The notes below the pieces were generated by a model that worked only from the letters and a program-made list of their open reading frames with translations, was not told the DNA's origin and searched no databases. A DNA stretch of 64,000 bases, taken from a virus. Its lineage: Duplodnaviria; Caudoviricetes. A program made the position numbers and the translations under genes. The first letter of the stretch is position 1. Every line of letters starts with the position of its first letter. The stretch lies in the IMG/VR virus record IMGVR_UViG_3300015608_002119, positions 1 through 64,000 of that record. One strand, written 5' to 3'. Shown piece by piece: positions 2,831 to 21,122 of this stretch.

Positions 2831-2851
2831 TGTGAGCGCTATTTAAGCCGC

Positions 2852-3286
2852 ATGTCGACGACATCATCATCACCAGCGACGGTGCGGCTTAAATCCCTGC
2901 TCTACGAGACGAATGAATCATCATCAACTGGTGACAGCAACACTTCAACAATAAGCAGCAGCGGCGTGGCCTCCAATCGGCTCGTACAAAATGCCGACGA
3001 GGAGTCCCTGCGTAATGTAAAGTCGCGTGCCTTGTTCGTCCTGAGGGCAATCAAGGACGGCAAGCGCTCATCAGACAGTGAGTTGATGGACGAGCTGGCA
3101 ATCCGAATGCGCCAGACGCCAGAACTCGACCCGCTAAACAGCGAAGACACGTATGGCGTGCAGGCGATGTTCAACTATCTGGCAAAGAATAACAAGAACG
3201 TTGCCCGTCGAGCTAAGCGGTTCTATAAGTCCCTGTTAGATCGCTGGATTATGTCTCAAACGTCCAGCAAGAGCGGGGATGAGTGA
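2852..3286 (+). CDS. Hypothetical late/virion-associated protein
   Basis: TATTTA at 2840; leader RLKSLLYE. Confidence 0.6.
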   Translation: MSTTSSSPATVRLKSLLYETNESSSTGDSNTSTISSSGVASNRLVQNADEESLRNVKSRALFVLRAIKDGKRSSDSELMDELAIRMRQTPELDPLNSEDTYGVQAMFNYLAKNNKNVARRAKRFYKSLLDRWIMSQTSSKSGDE

Positions 3287-6626: not shown

Positions 6627-7262
6627 TCAGCCGAAATCAATAGCAACGTCGAACACGACCTTGGCTTTGGGAATGCGCACATGGTTTACGATTCCATGCT
6701 TAAGCGTGTCGTTTGCGTTGAAGTAAAGGTCAGCATGGCTGTTGTCATGCACCAGCTTCTTGAAATATCCTGGCGCTTGCTTGCAGTTCTCATCAAGGAT
6801 TGAGTAGATCTGGTCATTAAGCCTCGTGATCTCCTTGGCTTCAACCTTGATGTCTTCCACTTTACCGAACGCGTATGATGCGGCATCGTGCACCATTACC
6901 GTTGCACTCGGAGCAATATATCGCTGCCCATCAGCGCCACATGAGAGAAGAATGGCACCGCAAGACATTGCCTTTCCCATGCAGATTGTTGCAACCGGTA
7001 CTGGCGATGATCTGATGATGTCGATCATCTTGAGAAGCGAATATACCTCGCCTCCGTATGAATCGATCACAACTGGAATGATTGTTTGCCCAGTGTTCTG
7101 CGCGTTGATCATCCCCTCCAGGAACTCCTTGGCAGACTCCTCACTGAACTTGTTTACACAGAGGATGTGTGGGGCATGCGCATTGATCGTTATCTCGCCG
7201 TTCTCTGTGATGGTTGGCTTTGATAGAATCGGGTTCCGTGCTTCGATTTGAAATATGCTCAT
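6627..7262 (-). CDS. clpP: ClpP-like serine protease
   Basis: IDSYGG, AMSCGA (catalytic Ser), MVHD; AAGGAG SD before ATG at 7262. Confidence 0.88.
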   Translation of the reverse strand: MSIFQIEARNPILSKPTITENGEITINAHAPHILCVNKFSEESAKEFLEGMINAQNTGQTIIPVVIDSYGGEVYSLLKMIDIIRSSPVPVATICMGKAMSCGAILLSCGADGQRYIAPSATVMVHDAASYAFGKVEDIKVEAKEITRLNDQIYSILDENCKQAPGYFKKLVHDNSHADLYFNANDTLKHGIVNHVRIPKAKVVFDVAIDFG

Positions 7263-7331
7263 ACTTCTCCTTGGTGGTCGTGCCACAACATGCGGTCGCT
7301 TCGAGCATACACATACTTAATCCAAAAATCC

Positions 7332-8477
7332 ATGGATAAGCGTAAGCAGCTGGCAGTCAAAGCCATTCGGAAGGTGATCAGAGAAGAGGCCGCTGGTAAT
7401 GCAGCGGCCGAGCAGCTGCTTCTGGAGCAGGGCCTTGTAGGAGCAGCAGGGCAGGCGGCAAAGGCAGCCGGTGGCGGCGTCATCAACCTGCTTGCACAGG
7501 CACTGTTTGGCAAAGGCAAGGGCACACCTCAACAAATCGCATCGTTGCGTGATGTGATTCGACGCGTAAGGACAAACCTTGCCGCCATCACAAACGCGTT
7601 CGTTTCTAGCGACTATGGGCTGTACAAGAAGCTGGGCTCAGAGCTCCGGAAGTTGCAAAAGGCATCCGAGGCGGCTTTCGCGGCAAACAACCCAAGGCAA
7701 GTTCAAGCATATCTGTCACAGGCCGCAACAGTGAGCGCATATATGTCTGCGTTTCCAAACATCGCAGAAGACATGGAGGCCATCTACAACGCACACATAG
7801 AAGAGATTGAATCGCCAACAATTTCTGCCGAGCAGCTCAACACCATCGTCAACATGATAAGCAACAATGTCCTTCGTGAGCTGAACGCAACAAACTATGA
7901 TAAGCTCGGCGCTCTCGGAAAGAGCATCAAGCTGCTTGGTATTAAGTGGAGCCCCGCCCCTGCCGGTCTTAAACCACAAGACATTGCCAACGCCATCACG
8001 AAGGACTTAAGAGATGCCATTCCTACTACTTCTACTGGTACTCCTCCTGCGCCAGCCGCAACACCACCAGCTCCGGTTGCCGAAGGATTCAAGCGCTCAA
8101 TACGCCTACTGTCGGAAAATGCGAAACGAGCAAGGTACCAAGTCGCCGTAGGCAACGCCTTTTGCGAGCTGCTTGAGAGGTACTCACCAATTAACGAGAA
8201 CGCACAGGAAACACTTCAGCAGTTTCGGGATGCCACAAAGACCGTGGCGCAGGGTGTGAGAAACGCCGCCGCTAAGGCACAACAGCCTCCTGCCATCGCA
8301 ACTGGGGCTCAGCCCCCGTCGGCATCAGGACAAATGGCAAGCCCAGCAGCGCAAGGCAGGGCAGCCAAGGTCAAGGGACTGCTTGGAAACGTTGGGAACA
8401 TCATCGGTTCTCTGACCCCAGAAGAGAAGCAAGCCCTAAAAGCTGACTTTGATGCCTTGAAGGCTAAGTTGGGTTGA
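7332..8477 (+). CDS. Ala-rich putative internal head protein
   Basis: TACTTA at 7314; repeated IREE, LLLEQ, LSEN, INEN motifs. Confidence 0.6.
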   Translation: MDKRKQLAVKAIRKVIREEAAGNAAAEQLLLEQGLVGAAGQAAKAAGGGVINLLAQALFGKGKGTPQQIASLRDVIRRVRTNLAAITNAFVSSDYGLYKKLGSELRKLQKASEAAFAANNPRQVQAYLSQAATVSAYMSAFPNIAEDMEAIYNAHIEEIESPTISAEQLNTIVNMISNNVLRELNATNYDKLGALGKSIKLLGIKWSPAPAGLKPQDIANAITKDLRDAIPTTSTGTPPAPAATPPAPVAEGFKRSIRLLSENAKRARYQVAVGNAFCELLERYSPINENAQETLQQFRDATKTVAQGVRNAAAKAQQPPAIATGAQPPSASGQMASPAAQGRAAKVKGLLGNVGNIIGSLTPEEKQALKADFDALKAKLG

Positions 8478-8480
8478 CTG

Positions 8481-9179
8481 TCAAAACCCATACCGCTTTA
8501 GATCAAGCGGTTCTTCCCTCGGAAGATCACTAAATCCACCAGCCGCATTGATCTTCTGAACCTCCGCATCTGTCAACACTCGGTTCACCTTCATCGCACC
8601 ACCAATGATCCAGTTTCCTGTCATGTTGGGATTGGTTTTGTAACGGTAGTGACCGCCACGTGGAATCTGGTCTGTGATGTGAGCTGTGGATGGCCTTATG
8701 TCACCCTTCCGAAGACCGGTCGACTTGCTGTCCTTTTTTACTCTCTCGGCTCGACTGTTTGCGACCGTCTGCCAGTCAACATCTGCTGGCATCTCTACCT
8801 CAGCCCACACCTGAGTCGATGGTCTGATGGTTGGCTTGTTATCTTTCAGCTTGCCGCCGATGTGCGTGGCCATTGGGTAATCACCGGCATGCCAGCCGGG
8901 CCGGTAAGCTAACGTTCCCAACGTCGACTTGACACCTGCCTTGCCGGTCTTGGTTGTAACCATCTTGCCTTCCTCTGCCTCATACCATACGCCTAGCTTC
9001 ACTGGCTTGTTGGCGTTGACAAACAGCGGAAACAGCTCTCCAGGTCGATTTGGATCGATCCTAAACAGCTTGTATGCCTTGATGGTTTTGGTTGGTGGCA
9101 CAAAGCCAGATGATGCCGGTTGAAGATCAATGGCCGGGCTGGTGGCTTCTGTGAGATATAGAAGGTCAGATAGTTTCAT
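8481..9179 (-). CDS. Stand-alone domain resembling those in large polyvalent proteins; leader MKLSDLLYLTEA
   Basis: AYKLFR, LFPLFV, LAYRPGWH, QVWAEVEMP, YRYKTNPN; recognised from memory only. Confidence 0.55.
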   Translation of the reverse strand: MKLSDLLYLTEATSPAIDLQPASSGFVPPTKTIKAYKLFRIDPNRPGELFPLFVNANKPVKLGVWYEAEEGKMVTTKTGKAGVKSTLGTLAYRPGWHAGDYPMATHIGGKLKDNKPTIRPSTQVWAEVEMPADVDWQTVANSRAERVKKDSKSTGLRKGDIRPSTAHITDQIPRGGHYRYKTNPNMTGNWIIGGAMKVNRVLTDAEVQKINAAGGFSDLPREEPLDLKRYGF

Positions 9180-9543
9180 AACCAAGAATAGCTTGTTTTG
9201 GTATGTCGTTTTTGGCAATCACTTCGTAATCGGCAGCGTCGGATGATACTGTATCAACATAGATCCCATTGACCTTTATCACGATCAATTCTTCATCTTC
9301 GTCAAATCGATCACCCAACCAATTCATCAAAGCATCTTCGACATCGTTCATATTACGGAACAAATAAACTCCGATTTCTTCACCTTCCATGTCTTGCGGT
9401 ACTGCCATCTTCAAGCCGTTACGTTTAATTGAATTCCAGTGTTTTTTTGTTGTAACATGATATAGTATATCGGCCTCTTCTAATGATTTATTTAATGAAG
9501 TTTTCCGATCGGCCTCGAACAACAGCTTGTACATTCTCATCAT
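9166..9543 (-). CDS. ADP-ribosyltransferase-fold protein (H-Y-E type), AT-rich
   Basis: LYHVT...SIKRNGL...GVYLF...YEV...IP; leader MYKLLFEA; TATTTA box at 9554-9559 (minus strand). Confidence 0.6.
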   Translation of the reverse strand: MMRMYKLLFEADRKTSLNKSLEEADILYHVTTKKHWNSIKRNGLKMAVPQDMEGEEIGVYLFRNMNDVEDALMNWLGDRFDEDEELIVIKVNGIYVDTVSSDAADYEVIAKNDIPKQAILGYETI

Positions 9544-9577
9544 TGTATGTTGATAAATATGTCACGGACGCTTACGC

Positions 9578-9811
9578 TTAGAACAGCGTATGTTGTGTGA
9601 TAGTCTCCGATGAGATGCTTGTGTTCGGATAGTTTCTGCACTCAGCACACTTGGCATCGAGCTTGTGTTGCGCAGTATATTCTGGTGGACAGTTTGGGCA
9701 TGTGCCATGTCTATGCCAACCACAATAACACTTCTCGCCTGGAGCGAGTTGATTGAGTGATTCCATCGCTTCCAGTTGTTCGTTATTGAACACCGACCAT
9801 CCATTACTCAT
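9578..9811 (-). CDS. Small Cys-rich (Zn-finger-like) protein
   Basis: CYCGW..GTCPNC, CAECR; coupled to the thyA stop. Confidence 0.5.
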
Positions 9812-10746
9812 ACTGCCACCTTCGCCTTGATTGCTGGGTGGTACGCGTACCCATCAAGCCGGATATCGTCAAACCCGAACGAGTCAATGCTCTTGATATC
9901 AGGATTCAACCAGAGCTTGGGCATTGCGTACGGCTCTCTGGCTAGCTGTGTGTTGATCATTTCCATGTGGTTGCTGTAGACGTGCAAATCGCCAAACGAG
10001 TGAACGAACTCACCGACTTGAAGATCGCAGACATGTGCTATCATGTGCGTTAGCAGTGCATATGAAGCTATGTTGAACGGCATACCAAGAAACGCATCAC
10101 AGCTTCTTTGGTATAGGTGGCATGATAGTCTTCCATTGTCGACATAGAACTGGAACAAGATATGACACGGAGGCAGCGCTGACTTGTCGATGTCTGCCGG
10201 GTTCCATGCGGTAACAACCAGGCGCCTAGAGTCCGGGTTTGATTTGATCTGCGCGATGACGTTGGCAATCTGGTCGATCGTTGAAGGCTTGTCGTGTAAA
10301 ATGCAGCTACTGTCACTATAAAATTGAAACTGTGAACCTCTTTGAAGCTCAATGTCGGCCTTGGTTCCGTCTGCAAAGAACACGGGCTCGAACTTTGCAG
10401 GCTTCGGCTCTGGCTTTGGAACCGCCCACTTTCTCCACTGCTTCCCATAAACAGGACCCAGGTTGCCGTCCTTGTCGGCCCACTCGTTCCAGATGGTAAT
10501 CTTGTTCTGTTGGAGCCATTTAACGTTCGTGTCGCCTTTCAAAAACCACAAAAGCTCTCCAACGACCGAGTGAAAGTGGACTTTCTTGGTTGTGAGGATC
10601 GGGAAGCCTTTCGATAGGTCGTACCGTGCTTGCCGCCCAAACACGCTCGTTGTGCCAGTACCAGTTCGGTCAGACCTTTTCGTGCCATTCTCAAGCACGT
10701 CACGTATGAGGTTGAAGTAGGTTTCGTCTGCGTTGTTGTATGCCAT
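9808..10746 (-). CDS. thyA: Thymidylate synthase
   Basis: [37 protein letters not shown]. Confidence 0.97.
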
Positions 10747-10779
10747 GGCCTGACATACTACGCGCCAGTTAATAGAAGG

Positions 10780-11823
10780 TCAACCCTTCATGCGTTTTGG
10801 TAGTGAAATACCGGTTGCGGCAGGGTCTTTGAGCGACGACCCAGACCCAGCAAACCAACCGGCCTTGTTGATGTTATTGTTGACGGCCTTCTGTAAGTCT
10901 TTGTGGTAGCTTGGGCTGTTATCATCGCGAGCATGAATAAAGGTATCAGAGCCAAGTCGTTTGTTCCTGCCAATGAACTTGTAGCCCATTCTTTTCAGAA
11001 GCTCGCGATTGTAACCGGCCTCAATGAGCATGGATTCGTAGAGTTCTTGCAAGTCTTCTTCGTTAACAACATCGCGCATGCTGCATTCGCTTAGCGTTTT
11101 ACCAACAACAGCATCTGATGCCGGGTGTAGCAGGCCAAGCTCACGTACCCTGTCGAGTGTTTTGATTCCGTTGTCATAGTACACGGTGTTCATCGCACTC
11201 ATGAACTTGTCCTTGTTTGGACCTTTAAGCTCGGCGTTCCAGTCTGGATCAAGGTGATACTTTGGTTTGCAGTCGTCTGACGGATCATCCGGTGTCAGCT
11301 TGCCATCGGGATCTAGCGGTAAAGTCTTCACATCTGACCGGTTGCCGAAGTAATGATACCAGACACGAGCGGCATATTGCGACACGAGATGCCTGTCTGG
11401 CATCAAGCCGTCCTTGCCAGCCGCGGCCAAAGCCATGTCGTAAAGCATCGGTCCATACCCTTTGGCCGCATCAGATGCGTGCACAACGTAAGCTCCTCGG
11501 CAGTTGCCAGAAACGCCAGCCACCTTGCCAATGTTGATTTGGCCCCAAGGGAACAGCGGTTTGTCTGACTGTGGTTCGTGCCAACGTCCAACACCGGCCG
11601 GGTTGTCTGTGTATCTCTGAAAGTCGACCGCAGAAGCACCGTAGTAGCTTTGTATTGTCGCGCCGCGCTGATTACGGAGTTCGCCTCTTGGACTGACAAA
11701 CTGTATGGAGATTATACTGTTTTTCTTGGTGGTTACCAGTACGCGTACCTCAAAGTCTGGTCTACCAACACTTCTAACGTACTCATTAAACGCCACTATA
11801 TCTTCAGGTGTCTTTGCGGGCAT
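10780..11823 (-). CDS. GNAT-like acetyltransferase domain protein
   Basis: AAKGYGPMLYDMAL...GLMPDR..VS..AARVW; TATTTA box at 11829-11834 (minus strand). Confidence 0.55.
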   Translation of the reverse strand: MPAKTPEDIVAFNEYVRSVGRPDFEVRVLVTTKKNSIISIQFVSPRGELRNQRGATIQSYYGASAVDFQRYTDNPAGVGRWHEPQSDKPLFPWGQINIGKVAGVSGNCRGAYVVHASDAAKGYGPMLYDMALAAAGKDGLMPDRHLVSQYAARVWYHYFGNRSDVKTLPLDPDGKLTPDDPSDDCKPKYHLDPDWNAELKGPNKDKFMSAMNTVYYDNGIKTLDRVRELGLLHPASDAVVGKTLSECSMRDVVNEEDLQELYESMLIEAGYNRELLKRMGYKFIGRNKRLGSDTFIHARDDNSPSYHKDLQKAVNNNINKAGWFAGSGSSLKDPAATGISLPKRMKG

Positions 11824-12190
11824 ACCGGTAAATATCGGTTACCTCATGCGCCATCACAACGTACTCGCGCCTGCTGGCAGTGTCGCCTGACACTACTACC
11901 GACAACAGTTCCACGTACGGTTGCCCTGATGGCTTGGCGTGATACAACGCCTTCACAACGCCACTCACACTGCATCGTGCAATAACATCATTGTCATACT
12001 TTCTGTTTGATTCTGACAGTTTTTGCATCGCTGCGCAGATCCCTTTGGACAGCGAGAACTTGACAATATCACCCGGCGCCAGATCTGTGAAGACTGGGCG
12101 ATGATCGTTGTGAGATGCCACGCCTGCTTCTCTATTGTCTGCGCGCAACAACCGTTTGATACTTAACCACCAAGGATTAGCCATAACCAT
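11804..12190 (-). CDS. Hypothetical protein
   Basis: ORF fills the gap; no motif. Confidence 0.5.
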   Translation of the reverse strand: MVMANPWWLSIKRLLRADNREAGVASHNDHRPVFTDLAPGDIVKFSLSKGICAAMQKLSESNRKYDNDVIARCSVSGVVKALYHAKPSGQPYVELLSVVVSGDTASRREYVVMAHEVTDIYRYARKDT

Positions 12191-12195
12191 ATCTT

Positions 12196-14199
12196 ATGCA
12201 TCTCTCCTCCTCTCTTGGTTATGTTCCACTGATTAATCTCAGGGTGTTGAGCACTGATGCTGAGAGGGCACGTGGGTTCATGGGGTGGAAGGCGCCTCCA
12301 AACGACAAGTTCGGAATGTTGTTCAAACACGACCGTCCGAAAAGACAAAGCTACTGGATGAAAGACGTTCCATTTGACCTGGACGCCATAGGGTTTGACG
12401 AGAACAACCGGGCCGTTGAAGTGCTGCACCTGAAAGCCCACGACAAGACGCCTAGGAGGTTTATACGGGCCGTGCAAAACGTTGTTGAGGTCCGAGGCGG
12501 TTGGTGTCGAGAACATCGACTAGAAAAAGGCTGGGAGCTTCGTATGGGCATTGGGAACAATAGCGACATGACTGGTGTTGTTGACGAGGCCGCACGAACT
12601 CCGGAGTACGCATCATCAAAGAACATCGGTGCCTTGTGGGTGCCACCGGCTAGCCGCGACACGTCTGGCGCCGTGATATTGTGTTCGACCAATGCTGTTC
12701 AGAAGGACATGGGCGTGCATGGTGTGCTCAGACAGTCGAACATAGATCGCAGTGTTATTGTGGCCCAGGTCCGATTCATGATCGACCAGCACTACAACGA
12801 CCTATACCAAGCAAAGTACAGCTCGGCAACAAACAAGTTTGGTCCACTTGCTTATGAGATGTTACTGAACAAGCTGGCCAAGAACTACAACGGGTCTTGG
12901 CTGCACAGCGACAATCGTCTTTCGGCAGATGCCGCCAATGTGTGGGCCAAGTATTATGACCGGTCTGAGGCCGGTCAGGATATTGAACGTAAGTGGCTTG
13001 GTGATTGGGGCCTGATAAAAGCAGAGGACGCGTTTGACGCAATAGAAAATGACCTGCACGGGTCCGGGATTGATGTCGATGTGTCAACGGAGCAGGCATT
13101 CCTTACATTGCTCAAAAGGCTAAAAAACCACAACCTTGGCCCAAGGGACTTTGCTCATATGTGGGCTTATCGCCTGACGGCTGACAAGACAGAGATGTTT
13201 GCGCCGCTCTACCAGATCGGATCAAACATGGTCAATGATATCATCACGGCACAAGAGACTAGGCCCATCACTCGCAAGGAAGTTCTGGATATGTTTATGA
13301 CTGGCACGCTTGGCCACTTCTCAAGACTGTATGAAGACATGCCGCCAAAAGGCGACGTATCGTTGGCTGGAGTGTTGTATGCCGAAGCAGCCAGGACGTC
13401 GTTTGAGGCTGTGCACAATGAGATGGCCATACTGTTCACGTATGACAATCCCGCCGAAGACATAACAGTGACTCTTGTGTCTGTTGATGAGGTGGACGAT
13501 TTCATCTCTGTTGTGCGCAGCAAACCAAAGAATGCACGTCGTCTGACGGACTTGAAATGGTTGTTTGCCAACAAGGCCATTATAGGCTCAATCACGGCTA
13601 GACGCCGTCAAACAGACTTGTACGCGATTGATGCAACGGCAGCGACAGACAAGTATGGTCCGCTGCTATATGACCTGCTGATGGGGGCAATTTATCCGGC
13701 GTATCTAAGATCAGACACCAGACTTACGGCAGGGAGCCGAAACGTTTGGAACCAGATGTTCAGGCGCGATGATGTAGAGCGCGAATGGCTTGGTAACATA
13801 TCCAGCGTAATCGACATCAAGGAAACAATGCCTGCCGTGTTAAATGGCTGGGGGGCGTCTGCACGTGTTGCAGCCAGGGAATATGAGGAGAACCACCTGG
13901 ACTCCGAAACGGTTGAGAGTGGCGATGAGGCTTACAACAACTTCGTAGACTTCGTGCAGCGGCTATATCGAGTCAGCAAGGCCGATGGTGATAACATTGG
14001 CCCGTTCTTCGCTTATAGAAAGAAGCCAGGAAAGACAGAGCTTGGTGACTTCTCCAAGTTGTGGCGTCGAGGGATTGACATGGTGGATGAGCTGGCCAAG
14101 CTCTACGGCGTAACCAACAAGGATATACTCGACAAGGTCGACGAAGCAGGCCAGCTGCACTTCAACAACCTGTATATACCTCAGATCCGTAACACATGA
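12196..14199 (+). CDS. DUF192 domain followed by two tandem GNAT-like domains
   Basis: RARGFMG..GMLF..YWMKDVPFDLD..VVEVRGG; two GPLxYx..LxSDxRL....NVW repeats. Confidence 0.7.
   Translation: MHLSSSLGYVPLINLRVLSTDAERARGFMGWKAPPNDKFGMLFKHDRPKRQSYWMKDVPFDLDAIGFDENNRAVEVLHLKAHDKTPRRFIRAVQNVVEVRGGWCREHRLEKGWELRMGIGNNSDMTGVVDEAARTPEYASSKNIGALWVPPASRDTSGAVILCSTNAVQKDMGVHGVLRQSNIDRSVIVAQVRFMIDQHYNDLYQAKYSSATNKFGPLAYEMLLNKLAKNYNGSWLHSDNRLSADAANVWAKYYDRSEAGQDIERKWLGDWGLIKAEDAFDAIENDLHGSGIDVDVSTEQAFLTLLKRLKNHNLGPRDFAHMWAYRLTADKTEMFAPLYQIGSNMVNDIITAQETRPITRKEVLDMFMTGTLGHFSRLYEDMPPKGDVSLAGVLYAEAARTSFEAVHNEMAILFTYDNPAEDITVTLVSVDEVDDFISVVRSKPKNARRLTDLKWLFANKAIIGSITARRRQTDLYAIDATAATDKYGPLLYDLLMGAIYPAYLRSDTRLTAGSRNVWNQMFRRDDVEREWLGNISSVIDIKETMPAVLNGWGASARVAAREYEENHLDSETVESGDEAYNNFVDFVQRLYRVSKADGDNIGPFFAYRKKPGKTELGDFSKLWRRGIDMVDELAKLYGVTNKDILDKVDEAGQLHFNNLYIPQIRNT
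12200..12230 (-). repeat. AGTGGAACATAACCAAGA repeat with purine tail, copy 1
   Basis: 18-nt exact match to 29916-29933 (-) and 46661-46678 (+). Confidence 0.85.
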
Positions 14200-14228
14200 A
14201 ACTTGGCTACTTAGACCAATAAATCAAC

Positions 14229-15521
14229 ATGAAGAAAGCAACAATGACGTCAACACCATCATTCACCACTCTAACAAAACTGTTGTTTGAGCAAGAAATA
14301 GACCTCATGGCCGGTGCAACTCATTTGTCTGATGAGCAGGTTGCCGGTATCAATCGATCACTGGCCAAACTGGGAATTGCGCCTTTGGCCACATCTGTCC
14401 CCGCCGCTGAACTGGAAAACGAACTGGCTCCGGTCACGGAGGCAGGCTATAAGATACCCGGACGGGCGAACTCTAAAGACGTTTCGATCGCCCCGGAAAC
14501 GATCGAGCTAGCAAGGAAGTTCTACAAGGCTGGTAAGCAAGGCGAGAACTGGTATTACGACGCCGCCAAGACGCTTCAGGAGGGATTTGATGACGAGCAG
14601 GAGCTTGCCCTGTTTTCTCTTTTGCTGGCCGCAACGTCAGTGCAGACCGAGATCTACAGCAACTTCATTGAGGCCGGGCTTCTGTTTAACGCGATTATGT
14701 CCGACATGAAGAACCAGCCAGAGCTGCTCATGCGGTTTGTTGATGATCCAAAGGCCGCGGCGATGGATACAAAGACCGCCATGGCTAGCCAGTTCGCTTC
14801 ACTGGAGCTCTACAAGCAAGCCGCCGCAGCCAAGATCATTAACCTTCCTGCGAAATTTGGCAACGTATCTCGCGCCATCTCACTGATGTTCAACAACAGG
14901 CTCGATGCCAATACCGTCGTCAACATGATATCAAACTCTGTTGACCTTGACAGGAAGGGCAACTTCGACGCTAGATCACCATTCTTCCGAAAGCTGAAGA
15001 TCGCCAACTACGCGCTGACCCTACTCGATCCAGAATATGCCTCTACTGACAACAACTGGTTCAACGTAGTCGTTGACACCTGGATGATCAGGGTGTTTTA
15101 TCCGGGCAAGAACCCTGCCGAGGTGAAAAACCTACTTGGTAGCGAGCGAGCATATGCGGAAGTTGCGAGGGTTACCGCAGAGCTGGCGAACGAAGCGGGT
15201 GTGTCTCCTCATGCAATGCAGGCTGCGATCTGGCTTGGGATCAAGCGTGAAAAGGAAGGCGACCTTGGTGGTGTAACGGACTACGTGACAGCCATTAGGA
15301 AGTTGGGAGAGGATTACGCTTACCTGTGGAATGGTATCTCAAAGGAAACGGTCAAGCTGCGCGACGTAATTCGGAAGATCGATGTCGGTACGGCAAAGCA
15401 AGCCCTAAACGACATCAGGGCCACCAACATCCGTAACGTTATTAAGCGTCAGACGGCAGCGCGGCGGGCTGCCAAGGCGGCGGCTTCTTCTAGCACCACT
15501 GGTGAAACAACCGATATCTGA
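14229..15521 (+). CDS. Putative HhH DNA-glycosylase-like phage domain protein
   Basis: NWY..A, LAATS....SN, KIANY, VVVDTWMIR, P.AMQAAIW; leader LTKLLFEQ; TACTTA at 14208. Confidence 0.5.
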   Translation: MKKATMTSTPSFTTLTKLLFEQEIDLMAGATHLSDEQVAGINRSLAKLGIAPLATSVPAAELENELAPVTEAGYKIPGRANSKDVSIAPETIELARKFYKAGKQGENWYYDAAKTLQEGFDDEQELALFSLLLAATSVQTEIYSNFIEAGLLFNAIMSDMKNQPELLMRFVDDPKAAAMDTKTAMASQFASLELYKQAAAAKIINLPAKFGNVSRAISLMFNNRLDANTVVNMISNSVDLDRKGNFDARSPFFRKLKIANYALTLLDPEYASTDNNWFNVVVDTWMIRVFYPGKNPAEVKNLLGSERAYAEVARVTAELANEAGVSPHAMQAAIWLGIKREKEGDLGGVTDYVTAIRKLGEDYAYLWNGISKETVKLRDVIRKIDVGTAKQALNDIRATNIRNVIKRQTAARRAAKAAASSSTTGETTDI

Positions 15522-15530
15522 TCGTTGGTG

Positions 15531-15908
15531 CTACACCAACGACCCGTCGCGGCTGTCCTTGCCGTGAAGGTTTGGCGAGTCGGTCTTCACGTCAGACTCT
15601 TCATCTTCTAGCCCATCCCACAACCCAAGCATTGCAGGTCCATCGAAGTCTGGCTTGTGCATGCCTTCCGTCTTGAGTGAGGCCGTCTTGACCTTCCTGT
15701 TGGCGTCTCGTTTGCCCCAAAAGCCTTCCAGGCCCTTTTTAGACGCCCGCAAACCACCAGATCCGAGCGGAGCCGTATAACCAACAACGTTGCCAGCAGA
15801 GAGGGCGTTATATTCGTCCAGGGCCGCATCCTCGTCGCTGGTGATGTCTGAGACATCACTAAACAGAACTTGCTCCAGGATCCCAGCGTGTTTTGAACGA
15901 TTGGCCAT
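15531..15908 (-). CDS. Small putative head-internal protein
   Basis: TAGTTA upstream (15923-15928, minus strand); LDEYNALSAGNVVGYTAPLG. Confidence 0.55.
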   Translation of the reverse strand: MANRSKHAGILEQVLFSDVSDITSDEDAALDEYNALSAGNVVGYTAPLGSGGLRASKKGLEGFWGKRDANRKVKTASLKTEGMHKPDFDGPAMLGLWDGLEDEESDVKTDSPNLHGKDSRDGSLV

Positions 15909-15939
15909 ATATGAACCAACCCTAACTATTCCAAACACC

Positions 15940-16569
15940 ATGCAGGATAAAGCACATATAGCGATAGGCACACTGCTGTTCACTGAGAAACTAGAGCTTG
16001 TCAACTGGGATGAATACAAACGACTCGTTGCCGATGCATATGATAAAGCGCCCGAGTATGACGAACGCGCTGTGCCAGCATATCAAGCCATGTTGTCGGC
16101 ATGCGACCGGTTCTTCAAAATGATTGGTTCAAAGGTGAAGGTGGAGTTTGTTGACGGAGATCCGTATACGTCCCAGCAGCAAATGAAACAGGAAGTGGCA
16201 GCTACAAAAGTTCTGAAGGTGATGAAAGATTTTAGTGATCACCCGCTGTTTACCAAAGAACAGAATTGGAAATTCAGAGCCGTGCATGATTGGTTTACAC
16301 ACATCTTAACCAACCAGCCGTTCACACTAGAAGGTGAACTAAAGGCATACAACACGCACCTTAAGATGTTCCCACCAGCTTCATATCCAGCGCTGTTTAC
16401 CGAGATAGTTGGCCAAGTGTGTTATCAGACATCACACGGCAGTTTTCCAACACAAAAGGTTTGTGTGCTGGATGGGTTTGATTACAAGAATCTAGGCCAC
16501 GTAGAAGGACACACGATCCAAAACAAACAACTTATGAGAAACGACGCGTCCACTAACGCAACCGGTTAA
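15940..16569 (+). CDS. Metal-binding (zincin-like variant) polyvalent-type domain
   Basis: NWKFRAVHDWFTH...GE..AY..H...TEIVGQ; leader TLLFTEK. Confidence 0.55.
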   Translation: MQDKAHIAIGTLLFTEKLELVNWDEYKRLVADAYDKAPEYDERAVPAYQAMLSACDRFFKMIGSKVKVEFVDGDPYTSQQQMKQEVAATKVLKVMKDFSDHPLFTKEQNWKFRAVHDWFTHILTNQPFTLEGELKAYNTHLKMFPPASYPALFTEIVGQVCYQTSHGSFPTQKVCVLDGFDYKNLGHVEGHTIQNKQLMRNDASTNATG

Positions 16570-17179
16570 ATGTCGACTCAACTAACCGCTCAGAGCGAGT
16601 GCTGGCCTTGTATTCCATGAACACGAACGGCCGACCTTTAACGCGACTATACGCTTGAGCGATCGTGTCCGGGCTGAACGCCCCAAGTGCTACCGTTGAA
16701 CCATCGACCGTAAAGTACAACGTCACTTTGTTTGCGGTTTCCTTGCCAGCAAAAATACCAGCGTCCTGGTTGTATCTCACCAGCAGCTCTCGGAACAGGC
16801 CAAAGTCAATTTCAGGCACGAATAGCGTTGGTTCTGTGGTATCGATCAGCTGATCTTTCGGGCAGTCATCATACGGAACACCGACCACTTGGCACTCTTG
16901 CCAGTGACCTTCAAGGTTAAAGAACCCGAGCCCACGTGATCTTAATGTCGACTTGAGCTCTAAAAGGTCTGACTTGTTCTTTGCTGTAGAATTGCTAGCG
17001 CGCCATGACGTAAAGATTGCGAAGTTAGCGGCGCCACTGCGCATGGACATATAATGTTGCCATACGCGAGACAGGCTGGCCTCGTGCAGCTGTTTTCTAT
17101 TGCCACCTTGTTCTCTTGCGGCAAGCACATCAAGGAATGGAATAATCGATGAGAGCTTTGACTTTGGCATTGTGTTCAT
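16553..17179 (-). CDS. DUF3293-like phage protein
   Basis: LHEASLSRVWQH, FTSWR, LEGHWQE, EPTLFV, YNQD; TACTTA box at 17185-17190 (minus strand). Confidence 0.55.
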   Translation of the reverse strand: MNTMPKSKLSSIIPFLDVLAAREQGGNRKQLHEASLSRVWQHYMSMRSGAANFAIFTSWRASNSTAKNKSDLLELKSTLRSRGLGFFNLEGHWQECQVVGVPYDDCPKDQLIDTTEPTLFVPEIDFGLFRELLVRYNQDAGIFAGKETANKVTLYFTVDGSTVALGAFSPDTIAQAYSRVKGRPFVFMEYKASTRSERLVESTFNRLR

Positions 17180-17183
17180 GAGC

Positions 17184-17729
17184 CTAAGTACCTAGCTCCA
17201 GTTGCCTGCGTATATCATCCGGAACGCGCGTAACCATAACTGGCTCAAACCAGATCACCATGTCAATTCCACCAGCCGTGTAATAACACCCATCATATCG
17301 ATGGCCATCTGATCGCTTGACATAATCGGTATACTTGCCACTGGGGCCTCGTTCCCAGCCAGAGATCGACATCAGTAGCTTGTTGAAGTCGATCACACCG
17401 TACTGGTTGCGCGCAGCTTCAATTAGCCCTTCTGGGTCTTGCTTGAGGTTGTAGATGCTAGCGGCCGGTACTTTAGCAGAGTACAGCTTGTGGGAATGTT
17501 CGGTGAAGAACACTTCCTTTTGTGATGGATCAACATAAAAGAACGTCCTAGGAACGTTTGACCGCTCAGCTTCGCGACGACTGTATGCGTTCGGATTGTT
17601 TGTGATGCGAAACGGTTCGAGGAGAATCTGATCGGAGTCTGTTGTTGAGTAGTGGTACAACTCAACGAGTCCATCAGAGTTCGGGGACAGGGCTTCTGTG
17701 TAAAGGACGCGGCACAGCGAAACAGCCAT
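17184..17729 (-). CDS. ADP-ribosyltransferase-like (polyvalent-type) domain
   Basis: LYHYS, TFFY, YDGCYY, VIWFEP; leader VLYTEA; TATTTA box at 17736-17741 (minus strand). Confidence 0.5.
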   Translation of the reverse strand: MAVSLCRVLYTEALSPNSDGLVELYHYSTTDSDQILLEPFRITNNPNAYSRREAERSNVPRTFFYVDPSQKEVFFTEHSHKLYSAKVPAASIYNLKQDPEGLIEAARNQYGVIDFNKLLMSISGWERGPSGKYTDYVKRSDGHRYDGCYYTAGGIDMVIWFEPVMVTRVPDDIRRQLELGT

Positions 17730-17759
17730 GCCGTGTAAATAGGTTTGGTGTTTGCGAGC

Positions 17760-20700
17760 TTATGAGCAGCGGCTGTAGCCGCAGTCAAGGCACTGCACGC
17801 AGCCGTCCTTATAGGCTAGGCTCTTAGAGCCACACTCCGAGCACTTCTTGGAGTTTGACTGGATTTTTGTGCCATCGACGATATAGTTCTTCAGGACCCG
17901 AGCCAGAACCTTGCTGATCGAGAACAGGTCGCTCTCGCGATCACCTGCTTTCGTGAGCTGCTCAACAATGAACTGCACCGGAACGCCGTGGCGCATCGAC
18001 AGGGACAGCATTCTCGTATAACCGGAATGCACCGGGTTCTCAAAGATGTTGCCAACGTCGCTGATCACCATTTCATCCTCCGGCAATTCCTCATAGTCGA
18101 AGTGAAAGTCGTATCTCGCAGGATTTATGTCGCCGTTGTGCTTGGACAGCTTACCGGCCTTGACTCGTTTCGGAATCTTGATGAACTTGCTAAGCCCACC
18201 CATGATCTCGTATGGTCGATCATCCAGCTTTCCAACGAATATCGTCCACTTCTCACCTTGCACGGTGGAGTGGTAAACGTCGCACGCTAGCTCGTTTGGA
18301 CGTTTGGCTGCGTGGTTGATCAGGCTGCCAAAAGATTGTTGCTTGTCTTTGTTGGCAGTTGATGACTCAGTGGAGGACACCAGCACGCCACTGCGAGAGC
18401 CGTCGCGATAGACCGTGAACCCCTTACAGCCACTCTTCCATGCGCGCAGATAGACCTCACTAACAAGTTCTTCTGTTGCGTCTTTTGGAAGGTTGCACGT
18501 CTTGCTGATGCTGTGCGCAATCCACTTCTGGGCTGCGGCCTGTAGATCGACGGACATCTTCCAGTCAACGTCTGCTGATGTGGCCTTCCAGTAAGGAGAG
18601 TTCTCTGGGGAGATAAGGTTCTCCGCGGCACCACACTCTCGTTGCTCCTTGCACCAGCGCTCATACCCACCATGCCGAACCTCGAACTCGGTCCACTTGT
18701 CTCCGAGCTCATCAACATAGTCGACCCGTGCATCGACATCGTTTGGATTGATTTTCTTCCTTCTCTTATAGCTGATCAGGTAAGCTGGCTCAATACCGCT
18801 AGTTGTTCCGTGGATGTTGTGCTTCTCAGACACAAGAGCCAGCATCGATGTAGTGCCTGCTGGTGGCGTGGTCGTGTCTGCGATGTTCCTGCGGCCATAC
18901 TTCAAGTAACGATCGCGATACACCGGACCAAGATAATCGTACTGGTTACTAGCCTCAAGCACTCGTGTAAGAAATGGATGGTCTTTCTCCTTGCCGTAGT
19001 CATACACCGGGAACGAGCCGCGTTGCATTGCCATATCCACAGATGACCTGAACGCGTTAACAGCCATGACCTTGTATAGACGATCGATATACTCAATACT
19101 CTCCTGACTGCCGTAGCGCAAACCAACGGCAGCCACAAGGTCACCAACTCCGGTGAGTCCAAGCCCGGTGCGCCTTCCCTGAGCACAGACACGTGATATG
19201 TTGGTCCACAGGTTAAGCTCTGGTTGCTTTGTGTCGTCATCCTCTGGGTCGTTCTTGATCTTTGCAATGATCTTGTCGATCGCTTCAAGCTCAAGGTCAA
19301 CAAGGTCGTCCATCAGCCGCTGAGCATCATAACAGGCAGCTGCGAACTTTTGAAAGTCAAACCTATCAGGCGATTCTGGAGGCACGCCCTCATTCAGAAA
19401 GCCCATACAATTAACCAGTAGAAGCCTGCACGCGCCCCAGGCTTCTAGAATTATTTCGCCGCAGTTCGACACGAGCAATCCACCGGTCCAGTATGTGTGT
19501 TCTGGGGCATCAACGGTGATGTCGAACACGTCCTCTTTGCTGACAGGTTTAACCTCAATGATCTCGTGTGTGTGTTCGGGCAGCGTTGTCTCTGGCCTTT
19601 CCAACAGCTCGCCTAGCGCCTTCTGTTGGTCTTGGTCTGTGAACCCAACGAGCTGACTGAACAACAACTGGTCGTGTCGTGTATTGATGCGTAGAACATC
19701 AATGGCGCCATTGCAGTCTGTTGTTTGGTGAGATTCAATGCCAATGGCCGACAGCATCAATTGAATGCGCTCAATCAGCTTAACGCTACTCCAGTGCTCA
19801 AATCTGATTTGGTCATTAGCAATATATCCGAACGCGTCAGTCAATGCCATTAAGAGCTGGCGCAACTCTTCCAAGTTCGCCTTGTAATCGGCGTGCAGTG
19901 GTGCTGTTGCAGCATCATAAGCGACACTAGAATCACATAGACTCAGTGGCTTGGCAACGGGTGGCATTCCTTGTGATGAATCAATCGACTCTGCCAGTCC
20001 CGCCTCGACCTTTTCCCCGTTCGAGACAACCCGATGGTTCTTTGTGCCATAGAACACACCAGCATGTGTCCTAAAGCTATGAACTGGCTTGACGCCAGTT
20101 GCAACCTTCCTGATAATCTTGGTCCATTGCTTACCGGACCAGATCGTGTCACCAACAGATACTTGCCCGAGCGTCCTGATGCCATCCGGTGTCAAGACGG
20201 TGGCCCATGCTGGCTGGCATGGGTTCGTTGATATTGACTCAAAACCAACGTCCGCGTAACAGTCAGACGGCGTCTGGGAAGTGACCGTGTCCCAGAACAG
20301 AGCTCCAGGTTCGGCGGAGTCCCACGCAGCATGAACGAACTGTTTCCATATATCCCTGGCGATAACGCGCTTGGTGATCTTTGGCGTCTTGCTATTGACT
20401 GGCCAGCGCAGCTCTACGTCCCGGTCTTCCACGATGGCGTTAAGAAACTCGTCTGACCACCGTACGGAGATATTCGCTCCGGTGACCTTCTTGAGATCGC
20501 GTTTGATGTTGATGAACGTCTCGATTTCTGGGTGGTGGCATGAGATCGTGAGCATTAGCGCTCCACGCCTGCCGCCCTGTGCCACTTCGCGACACGTGTT
20601 CGAGAACCGCTCCATGAACACGCCGATTCCATCGGTGGTGCTGGCGGCGTTGGCCGTTGGTAGCCCACGTGGCCGGATGTTGGAGATGTCGTGCCCAACA

Positions 20701-21122
20701 CCTCCGCGACGTTTCATGATTTGCGCCTGTCGCTGGTCTGTGTTGAGAATAGACCCGTACGAGTCCTGGCAGGACGGGATCACAAAGCAGTTGCCAAGCG
20801 ACAAGAGCTGGTGTGGATTTCCAATACCAGCCATCGGGCTTCCTTGAGGAATAAGCTCTTTGAACTTATGGAATCGCTGATAGATCGAGTCAGCTGACAG
20901 CGCATTGCCATACTTCGATTCAATCCTGGCAAACTCTGCCGCCATACGCCGGTGCATGTCGTCGGGCGTTGCTTCAAGCAGATTGCCGCCGTTATCCTTC
21001 ATCGCGTACTTGCCAACAAACGCCTTGGCACCCAGCTCATTGCCATTCAGGTACTTGGTCGTCTCAGCCAAGGCTGTTTCATAGTCTACGATCACGTTTT
21101 TACTACCAGCTGCCATCTTCAA
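17760..21122 (-). CDS. nrdJ: Class II (adenosylcobalamin) ribonucleotide reductase with intein
   Basis: NCFV, RRGGVG, RRGA, NPC|intein|CGE, PAGT, SGIEP, SISKT, KGFTVYRDGSR, C-terminal Zn ribbon; no small subunit nearby. Confidence 0.9.
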   Translation of the reverse strand: MKMAAGSKNVIVDYETALAETTKYLNGNELGAKAFVGKYAMKDNGGNLLEATPDDMHRRMAAEFARIESKYGNALSADSIYQRFHKFKELIPQGSPMAGIGNPHQLLSLGNCFVIPSCQDSYGSILNTDQRQAQIMKRRGGVGHDISNIRPRGLPTANAASTTDGIGVFMERFSNTCREVAQGGRRGALMLTISCHHPEIETFINIKRDLKKVTGANISVRWSDEFLNAIVEDRDVELRWPVNSKTPKITKRVIARDIWKQFVHAAWDSAEPGALFWDTVTSQTPSDCYADVGFESISTNPCQPAWATVLTPDGIRTLGQVSVGDTIWSGKQWTKIIRKVATGVKPVHSFRTHAGVFYGTKNHRVVSNGEKVEAGLAESIDSSQGMPPVAKPLSLCDSSVAYDAATAPLHADYKANLEELRQLLMALTDAFGYIANDQIRFEHWSSVKLIERIQLMLSAIGIESHQTTDCNGAIDVLRINTRHDQLLFSQLVGFTDQDQQKALGELLERPETTLPEHTHEIIEVKPVSKEDVFDITVDAPEHTYWTGGLLVSNCGEIILEAWGACRLLLVNCMGFLNEGVPPESPDRFDFQKFAAACYDAQRLMDDLVDLELEAIDKIIAKIKNDPEDDDTKQPELNLWTNISRVCAQGRRTGLGLTGVGDLVAAVGLRYGSQESIEYIDRLYKVMAVNAFRSSVDMAMQRGSFPVYDYGKEKDHPFLTRVLEASNQYDYLGPVYRDRYLKYGRRNIADTTTPPAGTTSMLALVSEKHNIHGTTSGIEPAYLISYKRRKKINPNDVDARVDYVDELGDKWTEFEVRHGGYERWCKEQRECGAAENLISPENSPYWKATSADVDWKMSVDLQAAAQKWIAHSISKTCNLPKDATEELVSEVYLRAWKSGCKGFTVYRDGSRSGVLVSSTESSTANKDKQQSFGSLINHAAKRPNELACDVYHSTVQGEKWTIFVGKLDDRPYEIMGGLSKFIKIPKRVKAGKLSKHNGDINPARYDFHFDYEELPEDEMVISDVGNIFENPVHSGYTRMLSLSMRHGVPVQFIVEQLTKAGDRESDLFSISKVLARVLKNYIVDGTKIQSNSKKCSECGSKSLAYKDGCVQCLDCGYSRCS
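19464..20219 (-). mobile_element. Intein (252 aa) with degenerate LAGLIDADG remnant
   Basis: Starts CQP, block B TKNHRV, ends VFDITV...LLVSN followed by Cys. Confidence 0.88.

Follow-up and report, generated by a model that had tools for sequence, protein, structure and literature searches.

For bacteriophage T4, the sequence that directs internal proteins to the capsid, the loading of foreign proteins by this sequence and the variety among internal proteins with leaders are established (PMC9026906, PMC3012670), and the idea that polyvalent proteins are delivered from the capsid is likewise established (PMC5512222, PMC7824862). Here we analysed a stretch of DNA from an uncultured phage, 7.3–17.7 kb of a 64-kb window, with genes that appear to bring the two together. 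We consider it probable that T4-type capsid-targeting leaders load stand-alone polyvalent-protein modules, encoded by about eight genes, in this phage. No description of such modules as cargo of T4-type leaders was found in the literature searched. Because plug-and-play loading is already established for T4 (PMC9026906, PMC3012670), the present case is an extension rather than a new principle.

The window covers the opening 64 kb of an IMG/VR virus record (G000) of 163,485 bp. The record is judged 44% complete, and the full genome would thus be that of a jumbo phage of roughly 370 kb. G000 is an uncultured, T4-related jumbo phage whose fragment encodes DHFR, thyA, an intein-bearing ribonucleotide reductase, UvsX- and gp32-like proteins, a tape-measure protein and a baseplate/tail module. 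A megablast of the region against cultured phages gave no match, a near relative being absent among them. Relatives were found with thyA as bait, and one whole record of 241 kb (G001; 66% complete, 46% GC) was then fetched; a search for related loci with a 667-aa protein (12196) as bait found none. The 7.3–17.7 kb stretch is a fast-changing island of predicted late genes around thyA. Thus, thyA aside, G001 has counterparts only of 8481, of part of 12196 and of the C-terminus of 15531, and the syntenic region of G001 holds different tagged genes. A similar turnover is known from T-even phages, whose internal-protein genes are variable (PMC9026906, PMC3012670).

In the mechanism that we propose, each transcription unit would start at the late-promoter box of the clade, TA[T/C/G]TTA, often 5–6 nt before the ATG. 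Most products would begin with a leader of 7–21 residues, in which a short helix carries a hydrophobic pair followed by x-Glu and leads into a flexible linker. The targeting sequence of T4 IPI–III and Alt offers the analogy: the leader would attach its protein to the prohead's scaffolding core. A gp21-type prohead protease would cut after the leader Glu, leaving the released enzyme inside the head, from where it would reach the host along with the DNA. The cargoes would be stand-alone versions of modules that are fused elsewhere in giant polyvalent proteins, namely ART, ART-like WHAG, DUF7178, HDxxxH and GNAT-like domains. Core binding, cleavage, packaging, injection and a role of the cargoes in the host or against its defences are what we infer from these analogies. 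The genes concerned are listed below; a slash within a leader marks the putative cut.

7314..7319, plus strand: box TACTTA, 12 nt before the start of 7332
7332..8477, plus strand: 381-aa Ala/Lys-rich protein (7332); putative leader ends VIRE/E at residue 18; no family match
8481..9179, minus strand: 232-aa 'WHAG' domain protein (8481), phrog_30118; putative 11-residue leader ends LTE/A; start overlaps the end of 9166
9166..9543, minus strand: 122–125-aa ART-like protein (9166) with a YHVT motif; putative leader ends LLFE/A; box TATTTA at 9554–9559, 10–19 nt upstream
10780..11823, minus strand: 347-aa protein (10780) with a GNAT-like lead; box at 11829–11834, 5 nt from the ATG; possible weak tag FNE/Y
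12196..14199, plus strand: 667-aa protein (12196), DUF192 (from residue 13) plus two copies of a 10780-like domain; box at 12160, 30 nt upstream
14229..15521, plus strand: 430-aa DUF7178 protein (14229); putative leader ends LLFE/Q at residue 21; box at 14208–14213
15531..15908, minus strand: 125-aa protein (15531); box TAGTTA at 15923–15928, 14 nt upstream; putative leader ends ILE/Q
15940..16569, plus strand: 209-aa HDxxxH protein (15940); putative 16-residue leader ends FTE/K; no box here
16553..17179, minus strand: 208-aa protein (16553), phrog_30877, faint SAM-lyase match; box at 17185–17190, 5 nt from the ATG
17184..17729, minus strand: 181-aa protein (17184); putative leader ends LYTE/A at residue 12; box at 17736–17741, 6 nt from the ATG
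2840..3286, plus strand, outside the studied range: 144-aa protein (2852); box; putative leader ends LLYE/T, followed by a Ser/Thr-rich linker

The TA(T/C/G)TTA box claimed in a preliminary description of this DNA was borne out by its placement, which is far from random. The window as a whole holds no excess of it (23 sites, compared with 30.9 in dinucleotide shuffles). Across the 163-kb record, however, 22 of the 35 sites fall within the 45 nt that precede a start on the same strand, compared with about one expected. By an unbiased count, TATTTA (25-fold) and TACTTA (18-fold) show the strongest enrichment of any hexamer upstream of starts in G000, with 9 of 13 and 7 of 14 occurrences, respectively, in this position; the top three upstream hexamers in G001 are TATTTA, TAGTTA and TACTTA. 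In that relative, the box is found upstream of the genes for the gp23-like capsid protein, a scaffold-like protein, TerL, two sheath paralogues, the tape-measure protein and the baseplate, and eight G000/G001 orthologous pairs have it in both members. Since it heads structural genes in the relative and tops the upstream enrichment, TA[T/C/G]TTA behaves as a late promoter of this clade, with late timing as a prediction. Within the island, eight boxes are correctly placed (7314+, 9559-, 11834-, 12160+, 14208+, 15928-, 17190- and 17741-), while thyA, a 77-aa gene, a 128-aa gene, 8481 (which overlaps the end of 9166) and 15940 have none.

The distance from box to ATG peaks at 5–6 nt, with a second peak at 10–14 nt. 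Among the box genes, 6 of 22 in G000 and 9 of 45 in G001 have their ATG only 5–6 nt beyond the end of the box (for example, 11829–11823, 17190–17179 and 17741–17729). A gap this short leaves no space for a Shine-Dalgarno sequence and suggests that leaderless or near-leaderless messages are common among the late transcripts. The T4 late promoter is similar in being a single short AT-rich element close upstream of late or structural genes with no apparent -35 element, but its consensus is TATAAATA rather than TA[T/C/G]TTA, and the ATG is often just 5–6 nt away here. The T4 consensus occurs once in G000 and not at all in G001. TATTTA also stands 15–19 nt upstream of the ATG of T4 ipII and ipIII (T4 65.7–66.5 kb); although this matches the box described here, it is probably a coincidence in AT-rich DNA. 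One candidate for the factor that reads the box was scanned (G001 86203, 264 aa) and gave no PHROG match.

The leader itself was assessed at several levels of stringency. The generic 'hydrophobic-x-E' tag of the preliminary description did not hold up: taken as [LIVMFY]-x-E, it has 853 matches in the proteome, 222 of them in the first 60 residues, where 230 are expected, and is thus not enriched at N-termini. The strict core L[LIVM][FY]x0-1E occurs 10 times in the 47,555 residues of G000, five of these within the first 25 residues (p=0.003), and three of eight occurrences in G001 are similarly placed (p=0.05). Seven of the eight N-terminal cases in the two phages are in box genes, although box genes constitute 10–14% of all genes. 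A Phi-Phi-x-E rule (a hydrophobic pair, x, Glu) fits the first 30 residues of 10 of 22 box genes of G000, compared with 24 of the remaining 192 (p=5e-4). In G001 the association is less marked (p=0.04); many of its tagged genes are internal to late operons and lack a box of their own. Unsupervised expectation-maximisation motif discovery on N-termini, free or Glu-anchored, drifted to uninformative models and was not used. The tag survives as a strict LL(F/Y)x0-1E core that is enriched at N-termini and nearly confined to box genes. The QLHE/A of 16553 and the N-terminus of 12196 are indistinguishable from chance.

The leaders that we accepted are those of 8481, 9166, 14229, 15940, 17184 and 7332 (VIRE/E), plus 2852 and 124180. 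A short hydrophobic-x-Glu leader separable from the domain is found in 7332, 8481, 9166, 14229, 15531, 15940, 17184 and 2852; in 8481, for example, a flexible linker follows the leader and the domain starts at residue 31. The possible tag of 10780 is weak, and 12196 has no N-terminal tag. The box-and-tag gene 15531–15908(-) had been overlooked in the preliminary description. The leader of 7332 has the form seen in three small head-module proteins of G001. Leader codons vary from gene to gene and the flanks are unrelated, which indicates selection on the peptide and not on a DNA repeat; a DNA-level leader cassette was rejected on these grounds.

The families of 8481, 9166 and 15940 each have hundreds of homologues, and these were observed in three formats: bare, leader-bearing and fused. 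The strongest evidence comes from the 8481 family. The G001 orthologue of 8481 shares 65% identity over the domain; its leader has diverged while keeping the form (M-K-L, hydrophobic pair, x, Glu). Among 120 homologues of 8481, many are stand-alone without a leader and many have a 9–12-residue leader ending in Glu. One of them (P0094) starts with MKSFQEFIAE, whereas IPII and IPIII in the T4 record start with MKTYQEFIAE; in T4, these ten residues are enough to target a protein to the capsid (PMC9026906). Across 80 viral contigs, the 8481 domain is mostly embedded and leaderless, the open reading frames (ORFs) extending up to ~3,000 residues N-terminally. The ORFs scanned are 1,200–3,200 residues long and carry LPD38, DUF7178 or ART-PolyVal. 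A 3,169-residue ORF (L086) combines LPD38, DUF7178 (the domain of 14229) and the 8481 domain, and a single ORF (L051) joins a 15940-like domain, the 8481 domain and ART-PolyVal. The 15940-like domain is fused to that of 8481 at two further loci (L038 and L056) and to a 17184-like domain at another (L082).

Stand-alone homologues of 15940 nearly all bear a leader at their start, while the embedded copies are leaderless. In another relative (G002), TATTTA precedes the orthologue by 6 nt, and the ten-residue leader agrees with that of T4 at M1, Q5, E6, F7 and E10. The 599 relatives of 9166 range from stand-alone proteins of ~100 residues, with or without a leader, to giant proteins, which reach 5,093 residues and hold as many as nine copies of the domain. 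A single leader, MKLLFENWR.YLNE, is found on both 9166-type (ART-like) and 15940-type domains, which are mutually unrelated, and leader-bearing homologues occur in distant phages of very different GC content. AlphaFold models of 8481 and 15940, built with 50-sequence alignments, have well-folded domains (pLDDT 88 and 93), with the leader as a short low-confidence helix on a flexible linker, detached from the domain. Two earlier suggestions thereby gained ground. The shared leader and the three formats of the three families speak for an interchangeable leader, and the domains of 8481, 9166, 14229, 15940 and 17184 do recur in large multidomain ORFs, in line with the claim that similar domains occur fused in polyvalent proteins.

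The machinery that would act on such leaders is present in G001. Its protease matches Peptidase_S77 (90.6 bits) and phrog_207, is 32% identical to T4 gp21, and lies, in T4-like order, next to a gp23-like capsid gene and to genes for scaffold-like proteins that are acidic or rich in Gln. When the N-terminal region of T4 gp23 was compared with the G001 capsid protein by BLASTP, the L-T-E that ends the 65-residue propeptide in T4 (PMC9026906) aligned to L-N-E. Small proteins around the G001 protease have leaders ending in IRE/A, IKE/A or ISE/S. The S77 protease, the capsid protein with its retained L-x-E and the gene order together point to T4-like head maturation in the clade. In the 163-kb fragment of G000, no capsid, portal, terminase or gp21-type protease gene was found; the missing half of the genome presumably holds the same head module. 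The preliminary description had envisaged an arsenal that is packaged, matured and injected. The box on structural genes, the gp21-type protease of the clade, the T4-like leaders and the fused relatives speak for this in part, whereas packaging, cleavage, injection and an anti-defence role are extrapolations.

The proposal that these leaders are capsid-targeting signals has to be weighed against a number of observations. Of all Glu residues, 14% satisfy a broader rule that asks for a hydrophobic cluster ahead of them, and the a priori rule from T4 mutagenesis, Phi..PhiPhi.E (positions 4, 7, 8 and 10; PMC9026906), gives only 1.3-fold N-terminal enrichment; both were rejected as discriminators, being too frequent inside proteins. 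With simple leader rules, the box association is not significant in G001. The apparent tag of a tail protein is unconserved, with E in G001 and D in G000. In the 15940 family, K-L-x-L is conserved just after the Glu, which may therefore belong to the fold. The family counts are not phylogenetically independent. As to the protease, the 44%-complete G000 fragment has only a ClpP-like enzyme and not one of gp21 type. In addition, a 344-kb, 91%-complete record (G003, locus L119) has a leader-bearing 15940 homologue beside RNA-ligase-like and YqeY-like genes, and neither an S77 protease nor a gp23-like capsid protein was detected in it; either a divergent protease serves there, or the leader-like N-terminus has another role.

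Some of these points would also suit a situation in which the box does serve as a late promoter while the leaders are chance matches or amphipathic helices of the ordinary N-terminal kind, the products being late non-virion enzymes for modification of progeny DNA or virions or for lysis timing. The loose rules not rising above chance, the E/D change in the tail protein and the conserved residues after the 15940-family Glu would all be expected, as would a listed tag that is weak in 16553 and absent in 12196. We nevertheless think this unlikely, because the strict motif is clustered at the N-termini of box genes, leaders are found on stand-alone copies and are missing from fused copies in three families, one leader is nearly identical to a proven T4 targeting sequence, another is common to unrelated domains, and the models show leaders detached from the folds. 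The similarity of the N-termini might also reflect a nucleotide constraint of leaderless or near-leaderless mRNAs, or a mobile cassette of promoter plus first codons, with no function of the peptide. An ATG 5–6 nt after the box in many genes means that the first codons may affect initiation; yet the hydrophobic-x-Glu core lies 7–21 codons in and not at a fixed distance from the start, the codons that encode it vary and its flanks are unrelated, and the leaders persist in distant phages of very different GC content. We give this explanation hardly any credence.

The remaining alternative, that the leader is an address or processing signal for another machine, involves a gene next to the island.

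6627..7262, minus strand: ClpP/S49-like protease gene; adjoins the island, divergent from the first tagged gene (7332); not of T4 gp21 type

This is the sole protease on the G000 fragment. It is 56% identical to the copy in G001, which has both ClpP/S49-like and gp21-type proteases, and the relative nearest to it in the databases belongs to an uncultured phage of 595 kb. With such an enzyme the leader might be a degron or an activation peptide; a membrane or secretion route might be served instead. The position and conservation of the gene, together with the leader-bearing homologue in a phage without a detectable S77 protease, are compatible with this. However, the leaders are too short and polar for signal peptides, the motif (P3 hydrophobic, P1 Glu) fits gp21-type sites and the site in the G001 capsid protein, and the G001 genes around the gp21-type protease and the scaffold-like genes carry similar leaders. 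We therefore regard a different machine as very unlikely, and the ClpP/S49-like enzyme is probably not the one that cuts the leaders. Loading by T4-type capsid-targeting leaders thus remains our preferred explanation.

As regards the identity of the cargoes, the preliminary description was right in part. It listed two ART-like domains and a WHAG domain. The 9166 product is, by its sequence, an ART-like protein of the polyvalent and H-Y-E type; it has a YHVT strand and a match to Tpt1/KptA that does not reach the cut-off (E=0.007). On weak evidence, the WHAG domain of 8481 probably has a divergent ART fold as well. In VIA-align, most of the best rows for its model are ART-fold proteins (Arr, RES, PARPs, DarT and diphtheria-type toxins), with Z≤4.8, and its nearest named Atlas clusters are Arr and ART-PolyVal (0.79). 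Foldseek against the PDB returned no match for the models of 8481 or 15940. For 15940, the HDxxxH motif from which a metallo-domain had been proposed is indeed invariant in the family, as part of the set H116, D117, H121, E133, H140 and E155, but the fold has no structural match, Foldseek being negative and VIA-align giving only Z<5. The GNAT label applies to a domain that 10780 shares with both halves of 12196, and is a lead only. Gene 14229 encodes DUF7178. The DUF3293-like and glycosylase-like labels found no backing in Pfam or PHROGs, which also gave nothing for 7332, 10780, 17184, 2852 and others, and a word-indexed search found no relatives of 17184.

Several features of the neighbourhood are recorded here in their own right. 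In 12196, residues 378–394 (13327–13380) form a leader-like segment, M-P-P-K ... VLYAE/A, exactly between the two GNAT-like copies; it may be the relic of a fused, formerly separate tagged gene, or an internal cut site. The C-terminus of 15531 matches a box-and-tag gene of G001 and G002, only this part being common to the G000 counterpart. In the small box-and-tag protein of G001 (149205–149558, L030) and G002 (L002, 7318 onward), the stretch after the leader resembles the capsid protein after its cleavage site (LSTGG..S..QV), and the protein may mimic, or be a paralogue of, the N-terminus of the capsid protein. Downstream of the island, the 1,120-aa ribonucleotide reductase (17760–21122) has an apparent intein-like insertion, judged from sequence only. 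In the whole record, TTGACT is enriched ~6-fold upstream of starts (23 genes); it resembles a sigma-70 -35 element and probably marks early promoters.

Compared with T4, where IPI–III and Alt are cut by gp21, the present system is alike in its short N-terminal leader ending in hydrophobic-x-Glu, in a diverse, fast-changing cargo that includes an ADP-ribosyltransferase, and in timing, late in T4 and with a late-promoter-like box here. A gp21-type protease is likewise present in the clade, as is a gp23-like capsid protein in which the cleavage site is retained, and some homologue leaders are almost identical to those of T4. In T4, Asp at P1 prevents the cut yet leaves targeting intact. It differs in its clade-specific leader consensus, LL[F/Y]xE, and in its number and type of candidate cargoes, ~8–15 that are mostly enzymes of 120–430 residues, as opposed to the three small basic internal proteins plus Alt of T4. 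Its cargo families are those of polyvalent proteins, and the system is known from sequence alone.

The polyvalent proteins (Iyer et al. 2017, PMC5512222) share domain families with the island, and the scanned ORFs carry LPD38, ART-PolyVal or Peptidase_M15; delivery with the DNA is predicted in both cases. The difference lies in the proposed loading, by leader and prohead protease rather than by fusion to a large carrier. Polyvalent proteins combine two or more disparate domains, whereas most island genes have one recognisable domain, and 12196 has DUF192 and two copies of one domain. As the island domains are separate genes with their own box and leader, they are not polyvalent proteins by definition. 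A further comparison is with the processed head and ejection proteins of the giant phages phiKZ, 201phi2-1 and SPN3US, where a gp21-related protease (gp175/gp245) cleaves many proteins inside the head after Glu (PMC9026906, PMC10052503), at sites that share little beyond the Glu at P1 (PMC9026906). In the present phages, P3 is hydrophobic, as in T4, and the head genes of the clade are plainly T4-like. The sites of phiKZ, 201phi2-1 and SPN3US have a small residue (S/A/G) at P3.

These comparisons raise a broader, more tentative possibility, which we put forward without favouring it: leader-tagged effectors and giant polyvalent proteins might be interconvertible formats of one shared pool of effector domains. 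The leader with its Glu site would then be a universal junction, with leader gain freeing modules and loss of a stop codon fusing them, 12196 would be an intermediate, and each T4-like or jumbo clade would have its own leader dialect co-evolving with scaffold and protease. If so, the full set of proteins that uncultured phages inject would be predictable from sequence through the leader dialect.

The findings link the capsid-targeting system of T4 with the computationally defined polyvalent proteins, a joining that we did not find in the literature searched. The prediction that polyvalent modules are capsid cargo becomes directly testable, since packaging of leader fusions in T4 is an established assay. 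In addition, the families of 8481 and 15940, which are large, viral and without a known fold, are good targets for function discovery. If the proposal is correct, the box and leader rule of this clade would list the proteins that an uncultured giant phage injects, that is, its tools for takeover of the host in the first minute and for counter-defence.

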